Shown: one piece after another, positions 5,008-57,104 of the stretch | How positions within the stretch are numbered: position 1 is the stretch's first letter | How the letters are laid out: each line of letters starts with the position of its first letter | IMG/VR virus record: IMGVR_UViG_2595698868_000001 | Span: 192,001-256,000 of that record | Length of the DNA: 64,000 nt | Reading direction: 5' to 3' (one strand) | DNA from: a virus | Taxonomy: Duplodnaviria; Caudoviricetes | Made by a program: the position numbers and the translations under genes | The notes under the pieces: model-generated | Told to the model about the DNA's origin: nothing | The model's input: only the letters and a program-made list of their open reading frames with translations | Database searches by the model: none

Positions 5008-5532
5008 ATGACCGATTTCAATTCGCGCGTTCCGGAAGGCCAACTGATGCCACGCCCGTGGTTCCGCGCCAACAACACCGCTGGACCGCTCTTCGGCATC
5101 TACAAGGCCGGCAATGGCTGGGCACGCTCCGCGCCGCTGACTGAAGGCGAGCGCATGCTGGGTGATTTCGTGCTGCCCTGGTTCCAACGTCCGCCCGTCT
5201 GGACCCTGGACCAGAAGGTCCGCCTGATCGAATCGATCTGGAACGGCCTGCCCATCGGGGCCTACGTGGTCAATCGCGTCCTGAACAGTCCGTACGACAA
5301 CTGGCTGCTAGACGGTCAACAGCGGATCACCGCGATCCTGGAATACGTCGCTGACGCGTTCCCGGTCATGGGCTATCGCTTCAGCGAACTCACCGTAACC
5401 GATCAACGCCAGTTCGCGATGATCCCGATGTCTTGCCTGGAAACCCAGATCACCGATCTGGCGGAACTGGAGGAGGTCTACAACCGGCTGGCCTATGGCG
5501 GTACGGCCCACGAGCCGAAGGTGGTCGCGTGA
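5008..5532 (+). CDS. DUF262 (ParB/Srx-like, GmrS-type) domain protein
   Basis: PWFQRPPVW, LIESIWNGLPIG and LLDGQQRITAI are the DUF262 hallmarks. Confidence 0.85.
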   Translation: MTDFNSRVPEGQLMPRPWFRANNTAGPLFGIYKAGNGWARSAPLTEGERMLGDFVLPWFQRPPVWTLDQKVRLIESIWNGLPIGAYVVNRVLNSPYDNWLLDGQQRITAILEYVADAFPVMGYRFSELTVTDQRQFAMIPMSCLETQITDLAELEEVYNRLAYGGTAHEPKVVA

Positions 5533-5819: not shown

Positions 5820-6142
5820 TGGACATCGAACTGCGCAAGATCGACAACAGCGGTGAGCGCGAGGAAGTCTTCGGCCGCCGCAAACGACAACGCCGGCGCC
5901 TGAACGCCTACGACATCATCCACGATGGTGTCGTCATCGGACGCGTCAGCGAGCGTCTCGTCACCTTCGAGAATCGCTCGCCGGGCAGGATGTACGTCAA
6001 CTATCGCTGGCAGAACGTGCGCTGGTTCGCCGAACGCCTGGGTCAGAATCCGCGCTATCGGGGCGGCTCCGAAACCCGCAAGTTGGAAGTCGAAGGCTTC
6101 CTGCGCGACTGGACCCGTGAACAGAAGGAGGCTTCCGCATGA
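5819..6142 (+). CDS. hypothetical protein
   Basis: GGAGG RBS, TGATG coupling. Confidence 0.7.
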   Translation: MDIELRKIDNSGEREEVFGRRKRQRRRLNAYDIIHDGVVIGRVSERLVTFENRSPGRMYVNYRWQNVRWFAERLGQNPRYRGGSETRKLEVEGFLRDWTREQKEASA

Positions 6143-6813
6143 ACGACATCAAGCACGTCTCTTTCGACGTCTGGAAAACGCTGATCGACCCGAGCCCGGA
6201 TTTCGGCGCCGCTCGCCGGCAACTGCTGATCGACACGTTCGATCTGCCCCCGAAGCAGGTCGAGACCGCGTACCGCTGGGTCAAGGACTCCTCGGATGGG
6301 GATGCTGAAGCCGCTGGAATTGGCTACACCAGCGCTCAGGTCTACGAGAAGCTGATGGAGGCGCTCGGCTTGCCCGCTGACGATTGGTGGGCGCTGCGCT
6401 CCAAGATCGAGGCCCTGTTCGCCAAGCATCCGCCGATCGTGCGGCCGGGCGTGACCGAGACGTTGCAGGCGCTGCAAACCGCCGGCTACGGCCTGTCGAT
6501 CTCCAGCAACACCAACTTCATCGCCGGAGCCTGTCTGCGAGAGGTTGTCTTGGATCATCTCGGTATCGAGTGGTCCTTCGCCCTGTTCTCGGACCAGATG
6601 GCGGTCGCCAAGCCGAACCCCCTCATGTGGCATGCCGTGAAGTCGCTCGCGGCGCTCCACTCGAACGCCGAGCCGCATCAAGTCCTGCACGTGGGCGACA
6701 ACCTCATCTGCGACGGCAGGTGCGTCGACCACGGGCTCCAGTTCCATCCCATCAACCAACCGGCGGACTTCCCCGCCCTGACCGGAGTCCTTCTGAATGC
6801 CCAAGCAGCGTAG
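6139..6813 (+). CDS. HAD-superfamily hydrolase
   Basis: Motifs FDVWKTL, SSN, KPNP and HVGDN...D. Confidence 0.9.
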   Translation: MNDIKHVSFDVWKTLIDPSPDFGAARRQLLIDTFDLPPKQVETAYRWVKDSSDGDAEAAGIGYTSAQVYEKLMEALGLPADDWWALRSKIEALFAKHPPIVRPGVTETLQALQTAGYGLSISSNTNFIAGACLREVVLDHLGIEWSFALFSDQMAVAKPNPLMWHAVKSLAALHSNAEPHQVLHVGDNLICDGRCVDHGLQFHPINQPADFPALTGVLLNAQAA

Positions 6814-7672
6814 TCCGTTCGCGCAGTTCGTCGTCCACAGCTTCGACGACCTGGAAAACCCGTCCTTCTGTCCGCGCGACTACTCGCGGCTGAAGTTCGG
6901 CTCCGACATCGTCGCCCGTCGGTTCGGCGACGAGATGGCCGAGGCCTTCTATGCGCAGCACCATGATCTGTTGATCACCGATCGCTGCGTCGTCGTGCCG
7001 TCCGCCTTCAACGTCGTCGAGATCGCCGCGACCATCCTGGCGCGCCACTTCATGAACCGCCTGAACGACCTGCTGACGCGGGAAGGCCATCGCGGCGTCG
7101 AGTGGACCATCATGCACCGCACGATGAGCTACGTCGCCGACTACTCCTTCATGCCGAAGGAGGAGCGCGCCGCGATGCTGAAGGCCGACAAGTTGTTCAT
7201 CAACCGCGACTTCATCGAAGGCAAGGTGCTGCTGTTCGTCGACGACGTCACCATCACCGGCGCCCACGAGCACAAAATCGTCGACTTCCTGGACGGCCTG
7301 GGGCTGAAGAATCCGCGCATCTTCTGCTACTACGCGCGGTACAACGGCGAACGCGCTGATATCGAAGCCGCGCTCAACCAGTCGAGCATCAAGGGCGCCG
7401 ACGAGTACGTCGAACTGATCCGCGAACCGGGGCATCAACTCGTAGTTCGGGCCGTCCGCTTCCTGCTGGACCTACCGACGTCGGAACTCGCCACGGTCCT
7501 GCGATTCGTCGATGGGCTGTTCATCGACAAGCTGTACCATGCCTGCCTCGCCAAGGAGTACGACAAGCAGGAGAAGTACCGCCAGGGCTTCGAGATGATC
7601 CGGGCGCGCCACGACAAGGGCTCGGCCTGGGGCACGCCGCCGGCGCAGGTCGTCAACATCGCGGCGGCGTGA
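6797..7672 (+). CDS. phosphoribosyltransferase (PRTase_3/ComF-like)
   Basis: PRPP-binding loop VLLFVDDVTITGA; YSRLKFGS N-terminal motif; paired with a HAD gene. Confidence 0.8.
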   Translation: MPKQRSPFAQFVVHSFDDLENPSFCPRDYSRLKFGSDIVARRFGDEMAEAFYAQHHDLLITDRCVVVPSAFNVVEIAATILARHFMNRLNDLLTREGHRGVEWTIMHRTMSYVADYSFMPKEERAAMLKADKLFINRDFIEGKVLLFVDDVTITGAHEHKIVDFLDGLGLKNPRIFCYYARYNGERADIEAALNQSSIKGADEYVELIREPGHQLVVRAVRFLLDLPTSELATVLRFVDGLFIDKLYHACLAKEYDKQEKYRQGFEMIRARHDKGSAWGTPPAQVVNIAAA

Positions 7673-10838: not shown

Positions 10839-11562
10839 TCAGGCCATCGTAATCGACCTAGGCGACACCCAGACCTATCACGATCTCGACGGCGTCCACG
10901 CCGACTACGCTGCCGGCATGCGCAAGCTGGGCTACGACGTCAGCCAGGAACTGCGCAAGAAGTTCTTGTCGCCCGGTACCGGACATCCGCTGAAGCGTGA
11001 GATGTACGAAAAGATTAAGGGCACCGATTTCTTCCGATATCTACCGATCATGCCCGGCTCGGTCGAGATGTATCGTGCCCTGAAGAGCACGAACGAGCCG
11101 GTCATCCTGACCGCTTCACCGCTGTTCGGTGCGACCGAGGACAACTACTATCTCAATCCGTACTGGCAAGGCGCCAAGTATCACAAGCGTGGATGGGTTG
11201 AGCATGTCTTTCTGCCGCAGACCCAGCCTTACGAAGATTTCGCCTTCGGTATGCGTCGCGTTCACTACTCCGATCACATCGCGATCGCGGATGAGAACTT
11301 CATCTGCACGACCAGTAAGCGCAAGCACGAGTTCCTTCACCACAAGCACTCCCAGCGCCAACTGCTGATCGACGACAAGATTGAGAACGTCACCGCTTGG
11401 GCCGAGGCCGGCGGTCTGGGCATCCTTCATCTCGATCCCCATACCACGATGCGGGCGGCAGCCCTCCTGTCGGGTCAGGATTTCGGTTTCGAAGGTCCCG
11501 GCGAATGGAAGCGCTGCGGCTCCAACGGGGGCTACCTGTTTGATGCGCGGGTGCCTGAATGA
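10816..11562 (+). CDS. 5'(3')-deoxyribonucleotidase-like HAD phosphatase
   Basis: DLDGVHADY, FFRYLPIMPG, ILTA, LLIDD...N...W...GG.GI; start uncertain. Confidence 0.75.
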   Translation: MEKTVLRSQAIVIDLGDTQTYHDLDGVHADYAAGMRKLGYDVSQELRKKFLSPGTGHPLKREMYEKIKGTDFFRYLPIMPGSVEMYRALKSTNEPVILTASPLFGATEDNYYLNPYWQGAKYHKRGWVEHVFLPQTQPYEDFAFGMRRVHYSDHIAIADENFICTTSKRKHEFLHHKHSQRQLLIDDKIENVTAWAEAGGLGILHLDPHTTMRAAALLSGQDFGFEGPGEWKRCGSNGGYLFDARVPE

Positions 11563-12251
11563 TCGAGGTTCCAGGCATCCGCGCCTTCGGATTCGTCCCC
11601 GGCTACGAGCGCAAGGGCCTCTATTCGATCGAGGAGGTTCACGCCCACATCGGTCCCGAGCCACGAGAGTTCGACGGCGACATGGTTCCAATGGCGTCGC
11701 AGCGTTACGTGCTGTTCGCACGCGCACATGCCTGCGTGCGTTGTGGCCTCGTAGGCGCCTTCTACGCCAAAGAGCGTAGCGCTCGGTACGTGAAGTCGAC
11801 GGGCGAATACCGACCAACGACGAACTCCTGGCACTTCAATCTCTACGCCCTAACCGATGGTCCGAGCCCCCGCGCGGTTCTGATGACCAAGGACCACATT
11901 GTGCCCAGGGCGCGCGGCGGGGCCGACGTCGATGAGAACTATCAACCGATGTGCTCGCCGTGCAATACGCGCAAAGGCCACCGCATCGAAGGCGAGTCTG
12001 ACGAGGAATTCCAAGCTTCGCCGGCGGAGGTGGCCCGACGCCGCACGATCGAAGAGGCCCGCGCGCGCAAGCGGGATCGCCACACCGAGGCGCGTCACCT
12101 CCTGATCCAACAGGTCAAGCGCCTGTGTAAAGAGGTGGGTTTGGAGCCGCCAACCGACAACGAGTTCTGTCGGATCGCTAATCGCAAACTGTCAGCGCGG
12201 ATCAGTGATCTGCTTCTGATCAAGAACCAGACGGTGGTGGCCTATGCCTGA
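11559..12251 (+). CDS. HNH endonuclease family protein
   Basis: CVRCG...TKDHIVPRARGGAD..NYQPMCSPCNTRKG. Confidence 0.9.
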   Translation: MIEVPGIRAFGFVPGYERKGLYSIEEVHAHIGPEPREFDGDMVPMASQRYVLFARAHACVRCGLVGAFYAKERSARYVKSTGEYRPTTNSWHFNLYALTDGPSPRAVLMTKDHIVPRARGGADVDENYQPMCSPCNTRKGHRIEGESDEEFQASPAEVARRRTIEEARARKRDRHTEARHLLIQQVKRLCKEVGLEPPTDNEFCRIANRKLSARISDLLLIKNQTVVAYA

Positions 12252-16183: not shown

Positions 16184-16519
16184 ATGCTCTACGAGAACAT
16201 CTCTATCCGAGGTCCGGTCGGTGACGCTCGCGATGAGCGCGTCGGCAAGTCGGCCGATGCTGAGCGTTACGTCTATGAGCCCAGCCCAAATCTGAAGGCC
16301 TTCATCACTGAGATGTACCACACGCGTGGAAGCACTCTGGACAAGATCGGCGATCTGGCGGCCAAGATCGAGCGCGGCGACGCCTCAGGAAGCGAAGAAG
16401 AATCGCTTCAGGTCTACGACGCCCTGCCCGTCCTCTACGCCTGCATCGAAGACCTCGTCGACATGTGCCGCCGGCGCGAACAAGCGCTCTGGGACAATCA
16501 CATCGCCTTTGGTCGCTAG
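16184..16519 (+). CDS. hypothetical protein
   Basis: GGAGG RBS. Confidence 0.7.
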   Translation: MLYENISIRGPVGDARDERVGKSADAERYVYEPSPNLKAFITEMYHTRGSTLDKIGDLAAKIERGDASGSEEESLQVYDALPVLYACIEDLVDMCRRREQALWDNHIAFGR

Positions 16520-16551
16520 ACAACGGCCAGCCAAACTGGCAGGTTGGCGGG

Positions 16552-17706
16552 ATGAGAGAGTTGACGATCAACATCCCGGCGCCGGTCCTGCGCCTTCGCG
16601 AAAGCTTCCGCGCTGCTGGATTCGATATCCGCAGCGTGGGCGGCATCATCCGCAACAAGCTGGCCGGCGTCGATGATCTGTCGGACCATGACTTCGCGAC
16701 CGACGCCACACCAGATGAACAGATCGCCATCTACGAGGCCCTGGGCATCCGCTACATCCTCACGGGCTACGACTACGGCACGATCACAATCGTTCTCGAA
16801 GGCATCAACTACGAGATCACCACGTTGCGCCTGGACGTAGCGACCGACGGACGCCGCGCCGCCGTCGCCTATACACGTGACTGGATCGCCGACCTCCTGC
16901 GTCGCGATCTGACCTACAACGCCATCGAGTTGACCTTCGACGGCGATCTGGTCGACCCCTACGGCGGTCGAGAAGACCTCGCGGCGGGACGCACGCGATT
17001 TGTGGGCTCGGCCCTAGCGCGTATCCAAGAGGACTACCTGCGCCTGCTGCGGTTTGTCCGCTTCCACGCAAGGTTCTCAGGCCTTGCGCCGTTCGATGAT
17101 GAGGTGATGGCTGCACTGCCGCATGTCGTCGGCGGACTGCGAATGCTCTCGAAAGAGCGTATCTGGTCCGAACTGAAGAAGATTGCAGTAGGGCCGCACG
17201 CGCCGGCGATGTTCGCCCGCATGTCGGCGACCGGCATCTTGCAAAACGCCGGCCTGCCTCCCCTGGTCCATCTCTGGGCTTTCGAGGACGCCTACCGCTA
17301 CACCCAGAATCCCATCACCCTGATGACGGTTCTCCTGGGCGACCGTGCGCTCGAAGTCGGCGCTTCGTTGCGCTGGACGAAGGAAGACCTCGCCCTGGCG
17401 GCGTTCCTTCTGAAGCATCGCAACGAACCTGTGCGCGAGAAGGCCTTGAAGCGCCTGCTCGCGGTCAAGAAGGCTCCCCTGGATCATGTCCTCGAACTGG
17501 CGCTCTCGCAAGGGCAGGTCAAGTCGGCCAATGCGGTAGAGTATTGGGACATGCCGATGTTTCCGGTGACGGGCGATGATCTGGTCGAGTTCATCGCACC
17601 CGGTCCAGGCATGGGCGCCGCGTTGAAGCGTATGAAGGAGAATTGGGCCGAGACCAACTTCACCGCGACGAAACAGCAGTTGATCGTGATGGAGGAATGG
17701 ACTTGA
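16552..17706 (+). CDS. cca: tRNA nucleotidyltransferase (class II CCA-adding enzyme)
   Basis: VGGIIRN...DHDFATDA, EITTLR.D, DLLRRDLTYNA, IQEDYLRLLRFVRF, LSKERIWSEL. Confidence 0.92.
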   Translation: MRELTINIPAPVLRLRESFRAAGFDIRSVGGIIRNKLAGVDDLSDHDFATDATPDEQIAIYEALGIRYILTGYDYGTITIVLEGINYEITTLRLDVATDGRRAAVAYTRDWIADLLRRDLTYNAIELTFDGDLVDPYGGREDLAAGRTRFVGSALARIQEDYLRLLRFVRFHARFSGLAPFDDEVMAALPHVVGGLRMLSKERIWSELKKIAVGPHAPAMFARMSATGILQNAGLPPLVHLWAFEDAYRYTQNPITLMTVLLGDRALEVGASLRWTKEDLALAAFLLKHRNEPVREKALKRLLAVKKAPLDHVLELALSQGQVKSANAVEYWDMPMFPVTGDDLVEFIAPGPGMGAALKRMKENWAETNFTATKQQLIVMEEWT

Positions 17707-23737: not shown

Positions 23738-23950
23738 ATGACGCTGCCGCCTACCTGCGAGGCCCTGGTTACCGGGCTCACCGATCGCTCCCAGGAGCGG
23801 GACATCACGGCCGCCATCCGCGCCGTCGTCAAGGACGTGCCGCCTGAGCAGCACGACAAGGCGTTCGACCGCGTGCGTCGTGCCTGCCACATGAACCGTG
23901 GCACGTTCAAGCGTCTGATGAAGCACGCCACCTCGCGGGTGGACGCCTGA
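23738..23950 (+). CDS. hypothetical protein
   Basis: AGGA RBS; coupled to the Thg1-like gene. Confidence 0.65.
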   Translation: MTLPPTCEALVTGLTDRSQERDITAAIRAVVKDVPPEQHDKAFDRVRRACHMNRGTFKRLMKHATSRVDA

Positions 23951-24789
23951 TGGCGAGCAAGGACGACCTCGGCGATCGTATGAAGGAATACGAGTTCCAC
24001 GAAACGGGACGTCGTTTCCTTTCCATGCTGCCGGTCTACGCCCGCATCGACGGGCGTGGCTTCTCGAAGTTCACGCGCGGTATGGCCAAGCCGTTCGATC
24101 CGCGCATGTCGGCCGCAATGATCGAGACGACCAAGTACCTCGTTCAGCACACCGGCGCCCTGATCGGCTATACGCAATCCGATGAGATCAGCCTTGTCTG
24201 GAAGGCGCCGGACTACAAGTCGTCGATCTTCTTCAATGGCAAGATCACCAAGATGACCAGCGTCCTCGCCGGTCTCGCCACGGCCGCCTTCGGTAAGGAA
24301 ATTCGTGGCTGGACGCCTTACGAGGATCGCCTGCCGTGCTTCGATGCCCGCGTACTGCAACTGCCGCAGGACTACGAAGCCGCCAACATGCTGCTCTGGC
24401 GCACGCTGGACGCCGAGCGGAACGCAGTCAGCATGCTGGCCCAGGCCCACTTCTCGCACAAGGAACTGCAACACAAGACGCAGCGACAAATGCACGAGAT
24501 GCTCGACGCCAAGGGCATCAAGCTGACGGACTTCCCCGAAGGCGTTCAGCGCGGCACATTCGTGCGTCGCGTGACCTACGACCATCCGACCATGATGATC
24601 GACATCGAGACCATTCCCGGCCCGACGTTCGTGCCCAGCACGGTCAAGCGTTCCAAGGTCGACGTCATTCCGATGCCCTCGTTCCGTTACGTCCGGAACC
24701 GCACCGAGGTGGTGTTCGACGCCGCCGCGCCCGACCATCTGGAAACCCTGGAGCGCTGGGAACGCATGACAGGTGAAGCCGATGATTGA
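23950..24789 (+). CDS. thg1: tRNA(His) guanylyltransferase / Thg1-like protein (3'-5' polymerase)
   Basis: LGDRMKEYE, ARIDGRGFSKFT, YTQSDEISL, FDAR, WRTLDAERN, FSHKELQ. Confidence 0.92.
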   Translation: MASKDDLGDRMKEYEFHETGRRFLSMLPVYARIDGRGFSKFTRGMAKPFDPRMSAAMIETTKYLVQHTGALIGYTQSDEISLVWKAPDYKSSIFFNGKITKMTSVLAGLATAAFGKEIRGWTPYEDRLPCFDARVLQLPQDYEAANMLLWRTLDAERNAVSMLAQAHFSHKELQHKTQRQMHEMLDAKGIKLTDFPEGVQRGTFVRRVTYDHPTMMIDIETIPGPTFVPSTVKRSKVDVIPMPSFRYVRNRTEVVFDAAAPDHLETLERWERMTGEADD

Positions 24790-35070: not shown

Positions 35071-35925
35071 ATGACCAAGCCAATCTGGATTCTGGAAACC
35101 AACGTCTTCGCCGAAGTGTGCTTCGATGCGATGGTCGCACACCTGATCGCGTCCGGCATCGAACATCACCTCGTACGCGTCCTGCCGATGACCAGCGATG
35201 GTGGTCGCAAGGCGCCGGAGATCGAGGGCAAAACCCCGGTTTTGCCGGCCGGCGTACCGGTCGTGGTCTATGGGTCGGTCGGTGTCCAGGCCTTAGCGCG
35301 CCAGCATGGTTGGACTCCGGGCGTATGGACGGACCACGAGAACTTCAACTATGAAACCTTCCGCGACAAGCTGGGCGACCTGCTTCTGAACGACGACATG
35401 GAGCGCATGCCGCTCAGTGCCGCCGGCGCCTACTTCGCCGCGCTCACTCCCGGCGAAAAGCGGTTCATTAAGCCGAACCTCGATACCAAGGAGTTCGCTG
35501 GTCAGGTCATCACCGCTGACGACTTCGACGTCTGGCTCGCCGGAATGATCGACACGGGGTATCTGACCAAGGACAGCGACTTCGATGTGGTGATCGCCGC
35601 GCCGAAAGACCTGGGCGTCGAATGGCGCGCGGTGGTCGTGGATGGCAAGGTCTCGTCCTGCTGTATCTATCGGCAGTGGCAGCGCGTGATGCCTGAACTG
35701 CACATCCTGCCCGAGGTCGAAGACCTGATCCTCAAGGCGCACGCCAAGTTCGCGCCCGGCGACGTCTATGTCATCGACGTCGCGCAGCAATACCAAATGA
35801 TCAACGGCGAGCGCGACTACGTGTTCAAGATCATCGAGTACAACACGTTCAACTCGGCCGGGCTGTATGCCTGCGACGTGGTCAAGATCATCGACGACAT
35901 CAACGCCTTTCTGGAAAGGAGCTAA
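35071..35925 (+). CDS. ATP-grasp family protein (R2K-like)
   Basis: FIKPNLDTKEFAGQV, EWRAVVVDGKV, YVIDVA, KIIEYNTFNSAGLYACD. Confidence 0.85.
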   Translation: MTKPIWILETNVFAEVCFDAMVAHLIASGIEHHLVRVLPMTSDGGRKAPEIEGKTPVLPAGVPVVVYGSVGVQALARQHGWTPGVWTDHENFNYETFRDKLGDLLLNDDMERMPLSAAGAYFAALTPGEKRFIKPNLDTKEFAGQVITADDFDVWLAGMIDTGYLTKDSDFDVVIAAPKDLGVEWRAVVVDGKVSSCCIYRQWQRVMPELHILPEVEDLILKAHAKFAPGDVYVIDVAQQYQMINGERDYVFKIIEYNTFNSAGLYACDVVKIIDDINAFLERS

Positions 35926-37937: not shown

Positions 37938-38519
37938 ATGGCGACCTACGAGGCCCACAAACCCCGGCTGGTCGACGTTCCCGAGGGCGTCAGCGGTAAC
38001 TGGCGCGTCGAGAAGTTCTTCGCCAAACGCTCGGCGTCGTCGATCATGGACGAACTGCGTGGACGCGGCCTGCCAGAGGGCGAGTACACGCGACTCGCGA
38101 ACGACACCGAAGACTGCTTCATGAGCGACACGCCGGCCGAGTACCGTGACGCTATGTGGTTCATCGGTGCGGCCAAGGGTGACATCTTGATCTCGGGGCT
38201 GGGCCTCGGCATGGTCGTGAAGGCCCTGCTGAAGAAGCCCGAGATTACGAGCATCACCGTCCTGGAACTCTCCGAGGACGTGATCAAGCTGGTGGCTCCT
38301 TCCTATCCCGATCCGCGCGTCCGCATCATCCATGCGGACTGTCGGACCTGGAAGGCTGATCGCAAGTTCGACTATGCGTGGCACGACATCTGGGCCGAAG
38401 TCTCGCTGGACGATCTGCCGGAGATGCAACTGCTGCGCCGGCGCTACGCCAAGGCCATGAAGGCGTCCCAGCGTCAGCATGTCTGGGGTGAAGACCTGAT
38501 CAAAAGGAGCCGCTGGTGA
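37938..38519 (+). CDS. class I SAM-dependent methyltransferase (spermidine-synthase-like)
   Basis: MSDTPAE, ILISGLGLG, ITVLELSEDVIKLV, IIHAD, FDYAWHDIW. Confidence 0.85.
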   Translation: MATYEAHKPRLVDVPEGVSGNWRVEKFFAKRSASSIMDELRGRGLPEGEYTRLANDTEDCFMSDTPAEYRDAMWFIGAAKGDILISGLGLGMVVKALLKKPEITSITVLELSEDVIKLVAPSYPDPRVRIIHADCRTWKADRKFDYAWHDIWAEVSLDDLPEMQLLRRRYAKAMKASQRQHVWGEDLIKRSRW

Positions 38520-39650: not shown

Positions 39651-40274
39651 ATGGGCACCATCCGTCATCACGCCATCGTCGTCACCAGCCGTGACCGCGA
39701 TCACCTGAAAGAGGCTCACGCCAAGGCGGTCGAAATCTTCGGCGACGCGCAAGCCAACGTCATCACCGGCGAGAACCTCGCTCCCGTGAGCGAGATCACC
39801 GTCGATTCCCAAGGCTACGCTTCGTTCATGATCGCTCCCGACGGCTCCAAGGAGTTCTGGGACCACAGCGATCTCGCCGACAAGGGCCGTGAAGCCTTCG
39901 TCGTGTACCTGAACGGCGAACGTCATGCCGACCCGTCGATGTCCTCGACCCTGTCCTGGGCAGAAGCCCAATTCGGCGGCCCGAACGATGACGACATGCT
40001 GCTGTCCTCGGTCGGGGCCGATGCCAAGAAGCTGTACGCAGCCGTGGCGCGCATCGCCCATGAAGGTCATGCTCGACCCGAGTACCCCAGCTATGCGCAC
40101 GTCGGCTTCGACGTCCTGACCTCGCTGGAAACCATCGGCATGGTCTTCGTGGACTCGCGCGGCAACTATCTGCTGACGGAGACCGGCTTCGAGTCCGCCG
40201 GCTACGTGGCGCGCGATCATCCCTTCATCGTGAAGGCGGTCACCCACAACTCGGTGATGGCGACCGTCGGATGA
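39651..40274 (+). CDS. hypothetical protein
   Basis: HHAIVVTS...APDGSKEFW. Confidence 0.75.
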   Translation: MGTIRHHAIVVTSRDRDHLKEAHAKAVEIFGDAQANVITGENLAPVSEITVDSQGYASFMIAPDGSKEFWDHSDLADKGREAFVVYLNGERHADPSMSSTLSWAEAQFGGPNDDDMLLSSVGADAKKLYAAVARIAHEGHARPEYPSYAHVGFDVLTSLETIGMVFVDSRGNYLLTETGFESAGYVARDHPFIVKAVTHNSVMATVG

Positions 40275-40546
40275 TCCAGCCCGAACCCACCGTCGAAGAA
40301 CTGCTGGCCGAGATCAAGCGCATCCTGGAGGCGCCGGACGACATCGATCCGGCGGTCCTGATGTCGCCCAAGATGTCGTCGATCGCCGGCGTCGCGGACG
40401 TCGAGTTCGATGAACGCTGGGCACGTGAGGTCGCCGATCTCGAACGTGTCGCTACGCGCATCGTGCCGGCGCCGGCCGATCACACCGCCGTCGAGGCCCG
40501 CATCGACAACGTCATCTACGTCCGCTTCGGCGGTAGCCCGTACTAG
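40271..40546 (+). CDS. small protein with a PopZ helix-1-like N-terminus
   Basis: EPTVEELLAEIKRILEAPDD vs Caulobacter PopZ EPTMEEILASIRRIISEDD (recalled from memory). Confidence 0.7.
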   Translation: MIQPEPTVEELLAEIKRILEAPDDIDPAVLMSPKMSSIAGVADVEFDERWAREVADLERVATRIVPAPADHTAVEARIDNVIYVRFGGSPY

Positions 40547-41763: not shown

Positions 41764-42011
41764 TGCGCGGCGTCGACGTCAACGAAAGCTATCAGACCGA
41801 GCAGCGCTCGTTCGATGGCCAACTCGCCGGCAGCAAGTACGGTGCCTCGGGCGGGCCGGACCTGACCCGTGAGCAATGGCGCGCCATGCAGCGCGCCGAA
41901 CGTCAGCGGTTCACCGGCAAGGTCATGATGATCTTCCTGGGCCTGTTCCTGTTGACGTGGGTGATCGCCGATCTGACCCACTTCAACGCCAACCTGAACC
42001 TGCCATTCTGA
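41763..42011 (+). CDS. small membrane protein
   Basis: TGATG coupling; C-terminal TM. Confidence 0.7.
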   Translation: MRGVDVNESYQTEQRSFDGQLAGSKYGASGGPDLTREQWRAMQRAERQRFTGKVMMIFLGLFLLTWVIADLTHFNANLNLPF

Positions 42012-42385
42012 TGGACAAGGCGCAGCGCATCCGTCTGGCGATCGACACGGCGCGACCGGCGTGGATCGAGAAGACCGTCAGCGGCGATCACTACATCGTC
42101 GTCACCAAGGGCACGCTGTTCCCGCTCACGAAGTCGGTGTTGCAGCGCTGGTACAAGACGCGGGCCGGAGCCGTCAATCTGGCCCGGCGCGAAGGGCTCA
42201 CGATCCTGGAAGGCGAGTGTCCGTTCGATCCGCCGACCGATGAGCAGGTCAAGGCCTATCACGCCCGCGATCGCGAAAAGCGTAACGCGGCCGAGCAGGT
42301 CATGCAGGAACTCGACGTCCCGTTCACCGAGGCGTGGCGCGCACTAACCAACCTGGAGGCCAAGGGCCTCATCCGCTTCGGATAG
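42011..42385 (+). CDS. hypothetical protein
   Basis: TGATG coupling. Confidence 0.7.
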   Translation: MDKAQRIRLAIDTARPAWIEKTVSGDHYIVVTKGTLFPLTKSVLQRWYKTRAGAVNLARREGLTILEGECPFDPPTDEQVKAYHARDREKRNAAEQVMQELDVPFTEAWRALTNLEAKGLIRFG

Positions 42386-57028: not shown

Positions 57029-57104
57029 TGGCGATCCCTACTGGACTCGAACCAGTACCCGCCCTTTAGAAGAGGGCTGCCCTCTCCAGTTGGACCAAGG
57101 GACC
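57029..57104 (-). tRNA. tRNA-Arg (anticodon TCT)
   Basis: Reverse complement: GGTCCCT/AGGGATC acceptor, GCCCT-CTTCTAA-AGGGC anticodon arm, ACTGG-TTCGAGT-CCAGT T arm, encoded CCA; 76 nt. Confidence 0.92.

Follow-up and report, generated by a model that had tools for sequence, protein, structure and literature searches.

The window, a 64,000-nucleotide stretch of DNA, belongs to the 280-kb genome of a CcrPW-like (Colossusvirus-type) Caulobacter phage, whose nearest named relative has Caulobacter vibrioides CB15 as its host. Within the window lies a gene for a 91-aa protein (Table 1), found exactly where the initial annotation had placed its open reading frame; the protein starts with MIQPEPTVEELLAEIKRILEAPDD and ends with IDNVIYVRFGGSPY. 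The ATG of this gene overlaps the stop codon of the preceding gene in a shared ATGA, and the order of the three neighboring genes is conserved in CcrPW (gp244-gp243-gp242). Searches of Pfam, PHROG and the PDB with the product of the downstream gene gave zero matches. A promoter scan returned 0 sites, terminator-like sites numbered three, below the count in shuffled sequences, and the sole Rfam match was a tRNA. No homologue of GcrA (PF07750) is encoded in this phage.

Table 1. Genes and protein segments at the locus, with positions in the window.
Feature	Position	Strand	Basis or remark
Upstream gene, 207 aa	39651..40274	+	Matches phrog_11375, of unknown function; stop overlaps start of the 91-aa gene
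Gene for the 91-aa protein	40271..40546	+	Orthologue of CcrPW gp243; from the ORF list
PopZ-H1-like amphipathic helix, E5-D23 (PopZ E7-D25)	40283..40339	+	BLASTP, PopZ N-terminal HMM, hhalign, AF2
Second element conserved in the N-terminal module, S32-P33-K34-M35-x-x-I38-A39	40364..40387	+	Invariant in 6/6 family members, including P0006
Variable middle, residues 44-73	40400..40489	+	8 non-synonymous and 11 synonymous differences from CcrPW; indels among homologues
Conserved C-terminal motif VEARIDNVIYVRFGGSPY, residues 74-91	40490..40543	+	16/18 positions invariant in 5 orthologues
Downstream gene, 166 aa	40555..41055	+	Unknown function; begins 8 nt past the stop of the 91-aa gene

The 91-aa protein belongs to a new phage family without a name, here called gp243-like, which comprises five orthologues (75-100% identical) and one divergent relative, P0006 (42%). 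All members are ~90-106 aa long and share a helix resembling helix H1, the N-terminal molecular recognition feature of the Caulobacter pole-organising protein PopZ, the SPKMxxIA element and a C-terminal N-V-(I/V)-x-(V/L)-x-F. In CcrPW, the orthologue gp243 (YP_009809512.1, HOU00_gp243), annotated as "hypothetical protein", is 89% identical, falls in the same length class and sits between the same neighbors, gp244 and gp242; it has nine substituted positions and one additional residue, each within residues 44-78. Codon differences between the two genes amount to 17 synonymous and nine non-synonymous, with none of the latter in codons 1-43 and eight in codons 44-73. Because it carries no amino acid change over those first 43 codons, is invariant in the orthologues and is kept in P0006 despite a different body, the N-terminal module is under constraint. 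At the other end, residues N80, V81 and F86 of the C-terminal motif are retained in P0006.

The protein is small, acidic and largely non-globular. In the AF2 model, which is poor overall (mean pLDDT 62, pTM 0.26) and in that respect counts against the competitor reading set out below, a helix at residues 8-20 is the sole confident part, with a block pLDDT of 79-84. A low-confidence helix at residues 33-60 runs into the middle region (block pLDDT 50-58), and a low-confidence hairpin is placed at residues 76-78 and 81-83. Neither Pfam nor PHROGs yielded a family for the 91-aa protein, and a sequence search of the PDB gave only an esterase at E 0.12, which we regard as irrelevant. In the ESM Atlas, nothing scored above 0.81, within the noise range, either for the whole protein or for residues 44-91, and the C-terminal half had zero matches in family and structure libraries or in Caulobacter genomes. 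The family was likewise sought in larger collections: a scan of viral_contigs returned CcrPW only, P0006 as a query found no match in viral_contigs or the phage collection, two metagenome scans (queries A4 and P0006) confirmed no relative, and a search among longer proteins gave 0 of 767 candidates at E<=10.

The initial annotation had proposed that the N-terminus resembles the client-binding helix of PopZ, quoting the start of PopZ; the quoted sequence agrees with that of a fetched Caulobacter PopZ (L087, 178 aa), MSDQSQEPTMEEILASIRRIISEDD, and the resemblance itself is borne out. By BLASTP, phage residues E5-D23 align without gaps to PopZ E7-D25, with 11 of 19 positions identical and 15 of 19 positive (pairwise E 1e-4). 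An HMM search with the PopZ N-terminus, also suggested at that stage, was run with a model built from 29 distinct PopZ N-termini; among 5,344 six-frame segments covering the whole phage genome, it matched the 91-aa ORF alone (E 4.1e-4, 18.1 bits), with the runner-up at E 2. None of 20,000 composition-preserving shuffles reached the real score (19.2 bits, against 10.8 for the best shuffle). Among 18,950 family models, the sole match was to NCBIfam PopZ_fam (NF052660), a weak one (E 0.06) that places residues 5-34 on profile positions 1-29. Searched against the whole phage genome, this model matches only the 91-aa gene (E 0.011, 14.7 bits) and against the CcrPW genome only gp243; at E<=10, it matches four of the six members of the gp243-like family. 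A motif pattern present in 80 of 80 popZ loci occurs a single time in the 280-kb phage genome, at the same gene.

The relationship also holds in the opposite direction. A profile of the phage N-terminus retrieves the start of popZ as its top match in five of five Caulobacter genomes (E 0.001-0.01, the next match at E 0.26 or weaker), and a profile of the phage family at whole length again ranks the popZ start first in all five. Aligned by hhalign, the phage N-terminus and PopZ match with a probability of 88.6% (E 2.7e-6) over 22 columns. Taken at the level of sequence, the likeness to PopZ H1 is thus real, specific and reciprocal, and beyond chance. Several searches count against mimicry: as a single query, the full 91-aa sequence did not recover PopZ in the five Caulobacter genomes, PopZ as a tblastn query gave zero matches in 50,697 phage records, and a profile search of 1.84 billion proteins returned no PopZ at E<=1e-3.

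The match spans only ~19 residues, and its statistics are modest at E 1e-2 to 4e-4 per genome, a feature that also weighs against the reading. At the DNA level, popZ and the phage gene are identical at 32-35 of 57 nt over the motif, with synonymous sites scrambled; because identity is only this high, there is no sign of a recent capture of popZ, and the DNA comparison would fit ancient capture and convergence alike. In Caulobacter genomes, the N-terminal profile also has a recurrent second match, where a J-domain begins in a ~260-aa protein; we read it as chance. Short PopZ-like matches lacking PF10691 were considered as bacterial proteins made of H1 alone and rejected, as we read them as truncated or frameshifted PopZ fragments.

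The phage helix retains the residues tied to client binding in PopZ. All six hydrophobic positions of H1 are kept (6/6), and the hydrophobic moment, 0.58 at 75 degrees, closely follows that of PopZ, 0.60 at 74 degrees. PopZ residues E12 and R19 are reported to be required for ParB binding, which their mutation abolishes (PMC5182065), and CpdR is reported to perturb the stretch E7-E23, which is also used by RcdA and ChpT (PMC11519897); both the two residues and the stretch have retained counterparts in the phage protein. The equivalents of E12 and R19 are E10 and R17, each invariant in five of five orthologues, so that the mutations first suggested for the phage protein, I16 and R18, were misnumbered. 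On the opposing side, the R19 equivalent is an alanine in the divergent P0006, and the polar face has changed from PopZ to phage at S16 (to E), S22 (to E), E23 (to A) and D24 (to P). A PopZ triple mutant, E12K/R19E/S22P, is reported to inactivate the sites for ParAB and other clients; the phage residue at S22 is E.

The remainder of PopZ is absent from the phage protein. The oligomerisation domain formed by H2-H4 (PF10691, DUF2497) has no match at E<=10 on the protein, nor anywhere in the phage genome, and hhalign aligns columns 1-22 only, in line with the initial annotation, which had noted that the C-terminal helices of PopZ are missing. The long acidic, proline-rich disordered linker of PopZ, reported as ~78 residues in C. 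crescentus (PMC9512792), is absent as well: the helix is followed by only ~10 acidic/proline residues (A21-L30) before SPKM, with no profile alignment past column 22, and hhalign finds no counterpart of the S32-A39 element in PopZ. The PopZ_fam score, 14.6 bits, lies below the curated cut-off of 125 bits. Lacking both linker and oligomerisation domain, the phage protein is a mimic of H1 only and not a PopZ homologue.

H1 is reported to be PopZ's single docking site for at least 11 clients, which act in the cell cycle, ClpXP proteolysis and chromosome anchoring (PMC11519897), and to bind the oligomerisation domain of PopZ itself (PMC12999525). The same report describes H1 of unlabelled PopZ as competing in trans for the oligomerisation-domain site and an H1-linker segment as inhibiting condensation; there, ChpT did not bind dispersed PopZ (PMC12999525). 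The affinity of RcdA is reported as low (PMC11519897), and single H1-client contacts are described in the literature as weak and dependent on avidity inside the condensate. A diffusing pool is said to make up ~40% of PopZ (PMC3678156). Absence of PopZ from the host, which the initial annotation had named as grounds for abandoning its idea, is not what we find: Caulobacter genomes carry popZ and encode RcdA and ChpT.

From this combination of features, we favor, with middling confidence, a role for the phage protein as a soluble competitor for the partners of H1, be these PopZ clients, the PopZ oligomerisation domain or both. Residues 5-21 reproduce the helix through which PopZ docks ParA/ParB, ChpT, CpdR, RcdA and others, and which, in the dilute phase, also folds back onto PopZ's oligomerisation domain. 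Made during infection, the phage protein would occupy the H1-binding surfaces of the clients and/or of the oligomerisation domain, and factors of the cell cycle, proteolysis and chromosome anchoring would thereby be uncoupled from the pole. A further contact would come from the C-terminal motif, which is conserved separately, through self-association or with another partner. With no linker and no oligomerisation domain, the protein cannot join the scaffold in the way that PopZ does. We infer that it binds these surfaces, competes for them and benefits the phage in doing so. Since single H1-client contacts are weak and avidity-dependent, a monovalent decoy might compete poorly unless abundant or oligomeric.

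Binding of H1 to the oligomerisation domain, which the initial annotation had missed, provides a rival target for the phage helix and with it another, rather unlikely, reading. The helix might be a polar address that binds the oligomerisation domain in trans and carries the protein, together with any cargo of its C-terminal motif, into or onto the PopZ matrix at the pole, the site at which these phages inject their DNA; displacement of clients would then be unnecessary, and in a stronger version PopZ would be held in the dilute phase with its condensation blocked. The reported competition in trans and inhibition of condensation by H1-linker (PMC12999525) and the diffusing fraction of PopZ (PMC3678156) favor such a role, as do the two separately conserved ends, expected of a tag joined to a cargo or effector module. 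Further support comes from bacterial proteins with a TIR_2 domain (P0007 and P0129-P0131) that carry three to four copies of H1 and suggest that the helix can be used as a tag; these copies show H1 to be portable, a point that also speaks for the competitor reading. Against this reading, the C-terminal half lacks any match, and an AlphaFold 3 model that places H1 against the oligomerisation domain is reported to be of low confidence (PMC12999525), which leaves the interface undefined. The TIR proteins also raise the idea of an anti-defence decoy, in which they would reach PopZ or its clients by their H1 repeats and the phage copy of H1 would compete with them. Beyond the existence of such proteins with three to four copies, the survey speaks against it, and we consider it highly improbable: a close relative of the TIR protein occurred in 0 of 401 genomes, a sample of the order to which a Caulobacter genome belongs, where the best match reached 47% identity in the TIR part, and the H1 motif was present in 0 of 5 TIR loci inspected.

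The function could also be unrelated to PopZ, the likeness of the helix to H1 then being accidental or a product of convergence on a generic amphipathic helix of acidic character. The shortness of the match, its weak E-values, the failure of single-sequence searches in both directions and the lack of a DNA-level trace of capture would all suit this reading, and an unrelated repeat protein, P0008, matches the N-terminal profile too (E 2.4e-5). We nonetheless think it doubtful, as the match is reciprocal-best in all five host genomes and without a second instance in that of the phage, N-terminus aligns to N-terminus with similar spacing from the start codon, the match takes in the non-helical E-P-T cap besides the amphipathic pattern, and the closest named relative of the phage infects a host in which the motif is native. 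We consider very unlikely the further proposal of the initial annotation, an adaptor between PopZ clients and ClpXP that docks its C-terminal ...NVIYVRFGGSPY on the ClpX N-domain like the tail of SspB. In its favor, the C-terminal motif shows strong conservation and a tendency to form strands, and several H1 clients are reported to be ClpXP adaptors (PMC11519897). The SspB tail had been given correctly, as the fetched Caulobacter SspB ends ...KIVSLDQFRKK; the claim of a ClpX-docking tail is not supported, however, since the two tails share at most a loose pattern of alternating hydrophobic residues, seen by eye and too short for statistics, the phage tail lacks the basic residues with which SspB ends, the libraries hold no match to the C-terminal half, and the whole-length profile matched this half recurrently in no host protein.

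Competition for H1 partners, the preferred reading, would make this the first known viral factor to target the hub built by PopZ, the best-studied bacterial condensate scaffold; our literature search found no phage-encoded PopZ-like protein in print. Short-motif mimicry is familiar among viruses of eukaryotes, and if the reading is true, a phage acting on a bacterial condensate would join them. A natural protein with H1 only would also be a tool for separating client docking from the self-inhibition of condensation. The finding agrees with the suggestion that the CtrA cell-cycle circuit is read or manipulated by Caulobacter phages (PMC9437464), and the sequence suggests that this phage may tamper with the cell-pole hub of its host. 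We speculate, as a long shot, that the protein is a viral effector directed against a bacterial condensate: its helix would cap the oligomerisation domain in trans, strip clients and, as a phage entering at the pole infects the cell, dissolve or rewire the polar organiser, and the H1 repeats borne by TIR proteins would mark the PopZ hub as a site contested between phage and immunity.

Compared with known systems, the phage protein is closest to PopZ at its N-terminus. Residues 5-23 correspond to an N-terminal H1 as described by the reference motif E-P-T-M-E-E-I-L-A-S-I-R-R-I-I: an E-P-T cap precedes an amphipathic helix in which the six hydrophobics, E11/E12, R18 (as K) and R19 are kept, the distance to the start codon is comparable, and acidic/proline residues come next. 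Unlike PopZ, the phage protein has a more acidic polar face (S16E, S22E), bears an unrelated conserved C-terminal motif and is encoded by a phage. With Caulobacter SspB (PF04386), it shares small size and a conserved, hydrophobic, strand-prone C-terminus after a flexible stretch; it differs in having no SspB domain, and the tails are not alignable, the phage protein ending in GGSPY and SspB in basic residues. The TIR proteins, which are metagenomic/NCBI sequences, likewise show H1 as a portable module separate from PopZ, its sequence being nearly identical to that of PopZ H1, but they are bacterial, place their three to four copies C-terminal of the TIR_2 domain and have only the helix in common with the phage protein.

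The N-terminus of the 91-aa protein resembles H1, the N-terminal recognition helix of the Caulobacter pole-organising protein PopZ, as the initial annotation had proposed. Both termini quoted there were confirmed on the ORF, as was the PopZ start given there, MSDQSQEPTMEEILASIRRIISEDD, in a Caulobacter PopZ; PopZ sequences for comparison were retrieved from databases. The PopZ N-terminal HMM search suggested as a check, built from 29 distinct N-termini and run against the whole phage genome in six-frame translation (5,344 segments of at least 30 aa), matched this ORF alone (E = 4.1e-4; next best E = 2), and 0 of 20,000 shuffled versions reached the real score. In reverse, a phage N-terminal profile (6 rows, 43 positions) had the first popZ codons as its top match in each of five Caulobacter genomes (E = 0.001-0.010; next E = 0.26-1.7); the whole-length profile again ranked popZ top in all five, more weakly (E = 0.05-1). 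By hhalign, the phage family aligned with 25 PopZ proteins over columns 1-22 only (probability 88.6%, E = 2.7e-6), and BLASTP gave 11/19 identities and 15/19 positives without gaps. A genome scan provided 80 popZ loci; the motif pattern carried by all 80 has a single match in the 280-kb phage genome, and it lies in this gene.

Among 18,950 families, NCBIfam PopZ_fam alone matched the protein (E = 0.06, N-terminus to N-terminus), at a single place in the phage genome and likewise in Caulobacter phage CcrPW; three phiCbK-like Poindextervirus genomes gave no match, leaving CcrPW the only one of four records matched. Four of six family members matched PopZ_fam at E ≤ 10, and one matched an unrelated lipoprotein family (E = 0.071). 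As a single query, the whole protein found no PopZ in five Caulobacter genomes (matches in two, none at popZ, all E ≥ 0.22), and tblastn of PopZ against 50,697 phage records found no match. PopZ proper is also absent from the E ≤ 1e-3 list of a profile search of 1.84 billion proteins, as is to be anticipated when the match spans 19 residues and the database is so large. Judged by these comparisons, the PopZ likeness is real and specific, yet restricted to H1.

The aligned stretch corresponds to E7-D25 in PopZ numbering. At each of the six hydrophobic helix positions of PopZ (M10, I13, L14, I17, I20 and I21) the phage protein also has a hydrophobic residue (V8, L11, L12, I15, I18 and L19), and the two helices agree in hydrophobic moment, in magnitude as well as orientation (0.58 at 75 degrees in phage versus 0.60 at 74 degrees in PopZ). 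The counterparts of PopZ E12 and R19 are E10 and R17, which are invariant among five orthologues; the mutation sites proposed initially, I16/R18, were mis-numbered. Glutamate occupies the position of PopZ S22. The reported PopZ domain map comprises H1 (1-23), a disordered linker (24-101) and a C-terminal oligomerisation domain (PMC9512792). According to PMC11519897, at least eleven clients bind the N-terminal hub, and CpdR perturbs E7-E23, a site common to RcdA and ChpT. Recruitment of ParA and ParB reportedly needs the N-terminal domain (PMC3678156); E12K/R19E abolishes ParB binding, and once S22P is added the sites for ParAB and other clients are inactive (PMC5182065).

A PopZ homologue was ruled out: PF10691 did not match the 91-aa protein, the score was 14.6 bits against a 125-bit cut-off, and the profile alignment ends with the helix, in agreement with the earlier remark that the C-terminal helices of PopZ are not evident. 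Across the motif, DNA identity to popZ is 32-35 of 57 nt, with the third base common in only 5-7 of the 11 identical-residue codons; this DNA comparison does not discriminate between ancient capture and convergence as the origin of the helix.

The virus record, of which the window forms positions 192001-256000, is 279,967 bp long and estimated 96% complete. Its closest named relative is CcrPW (Colossusvirus; host C. vibrioides CB15), to which a 5-kb query aligned over 87% of its length at 86% nucleotide identity. The orthologue there, gp243 ("hypothetical protein"), is 89% identical, with conserved neighbours. In frame, 17 synonymous versus 9 non-synonymous differences to CcrPW favour the plus frame over antisense ORFs. 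The ATG overlaps the stop codon of an upstream 207-aa ORF (ATGA), and a 166-aa ORF begins 8 nt past the stop, all three sitting in a long single-strand array of small genes. Most neighbours have no assigned function. The GcrA family (PF07750) had no match at E ≤ 0.01 in the whole phage genome; the positive control matched in Caulobacter vibrioides.

Features of the window
Feature	Position	Strand	Remark
Gene for 91-aa protein	40271..40546	+	ORF
Methyltransferase	37938-38519		neighbour with assignment
Transcriptional-regulator PHROG	42008-42385		neighbour with assignment
tRNA-Arg (anticodon TCT)	57029-57104	-	ARAGORN and Rfam; sole RNA family match in window
PolyA_pol head-domain protein (CCA-adding/poly(A) polymerase type)	16465-17706	+	tRNA-related; E 4e-20
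Thg1-like tRNA-His guanylyltransferase domain	23950-24789	+	tRNA-related; E 1e-26
284-aa protein, R2K-clade ATP-grasp domain	35071-35925	+	PF18299 E 6e-11; PF14243 E 5e-10; PHROG family without known function
GmrSD_N-domain ORF	5008-5532	+	otherwise unassignable genes around
HAD hydrolase	6139-6813	+	otherwise unassignable genes around
ComF-like PRTase	6797-7672	+	E 4e-46; otherwise unassignable genes around
HNH endonuclease	11559-12251	+	otherwise unassignable genes around

Five family proteins emerged from a word-indexed search across 5.8 billion proteins: the window's own, gp243 and three from metagenomes at 75-77% identity. The profile search of all 1.84 billion representatives returned four at E ≤ 1e-3, namely the window's own, a divergent relative (P0006), a TIR protein (P0007) and a repeat protein (P0008). 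P0006 (106 aa, E = 2.4e-8; on 15 contigs, the longest 93.8 kb) has residues 1-43 in common with the 91-aa protein and a different body; it retains the H1-like helix and the SPKMxxIA element and has NVVHLSF as its C-terminal motif, but differs in the middle and carries alanine for R17. Three elements are conserved in the six-member alignment: the N-terminal helix, SPKMxxIA (residues 32-39) and a C-terminal N-V-(I/V)-x-(V/L)-x-F motif. Non-synonymous and synonymous changes relative to CcrPW number 0 and 4 in codons 1-43, 8 and 11 in codons 44-73, and 1 and 2 in codons 74-91, a distribution between two phage genomes that indicates constraint at both ends and freedom in the middle; the C-terminal motif is clearly constrained. 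The protein is acidic (net charge -9). In an AF2 model from the 6-row alignment (mean pLDDT 62, pTM 0.26), confidence is confined to the first 20 residues (block means 79 and 84), of which 8-20 form a helix; a helix at 33-60 is of low confidence and a hairpin at 76-83 of very low confidence. As modelled, the protein looks flexible, with a pre-formed recognition helix and no globular domain.

P0007 (E = 7e-6 with the phage-family profile) has a TIR_2 domain followed by four tandem copies of the helix motif. With its repeat region as query, 3,943 of 8,000 scored candidate proteins reached E ≤ 10, and many of the 120 listed are named PopZ or carry PF10691. P0007, P0129, P0130 and P0131 are bacterial TIR_2 proteins (E = 6.5e-16) ending in three or four tandem H1-like helices, nearly identical to PopZ H1 and separated by proline-rich linkers; the copy number differs among near-identical TIR_2 proteins. 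This suggests that H1 is a portable module, here joined to an immune-type domain. A sample of 401 genomes from the order to which a Caulobacter genome belongs held no close relative of the TIR-H1 protein (at best 47% identity, in the TIR part), and the H1 motif was absent from five TIR loci read. One sampled genome, flagged as unpublished, contributes to tallies alone (41 of 41; 83 of 401), and none of the claims depends on it. P0008 (523 aa), which matched the phage N-terminal profile (E = 2.4e-5), contains about six repeats, each starting (A/V)(T/A)IE(E/D)ILKEI(R/K)KYLEEH; it has no E-P-T cap, and its Pfam matches are at noise level. We take P0008 as a probably unrelated repeat protein; it illustrates that such helices recur.

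In the dilute phase, H1 is reported also to bind PopZ's own oligomerisation domain, for which H1 of other PopZ molecules competes in trans; the H1-linker segment restrains condensation, and condensation releases H1 for clients such as ChpT (PMC12999525, 2026). Since H1 both docks clients and binds the oligomerisation domain, an H1-only phage protein could act on either. It could occupy clients, keeping them off the pole, or occupy the oligomerisation domain and so ride to the pole or hinder condensation. A competitor role, by client occupation and/or disruptive oligomerisation-domain binding, ranks first and seems to us a roughly even bet; a non-disruptive polar tag is rather unlikely. The chief caveat is that single H1-client contacts are reportedly weak and avidity-dependent (PMC12999525; PMC11519897). 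To compete, a monovalent decoy would have to be abundant or to self-associate, and self-association might be provided by the conserved C-terminal motif.

We similarly doubt that the PopZ likeness, short as the match is, is a matter of chance: the resemblance was borne out by the forward and reverse profile tests and the shuffles. The initial annotation had also seen a possible ClpX-docking tail. The Caulobacter SspB tail is as given there; it has the hydrophobic pattern alone in common with the phage tail. For the C-terminal half, families and structures gave no match, the Atlas gave none above noise and the host genomes none that recurs, so the docking tail found no support. A ClpXP adaptor is most improbable. 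There is just as slight a chance of an anti-defence decoy that competes with the H1-bearing TIR_2 proteins.

Our literature search found no phage-encoded PopZ-like protein in print. The sequence evidence for H1 mimicry is good, and the competitor function we favour is putative. Viral mimicry of a host motif is a known strategy, of which a phage copy of the docking helix of a bacterial condensate scaffold is, on this evidence, a new variant.
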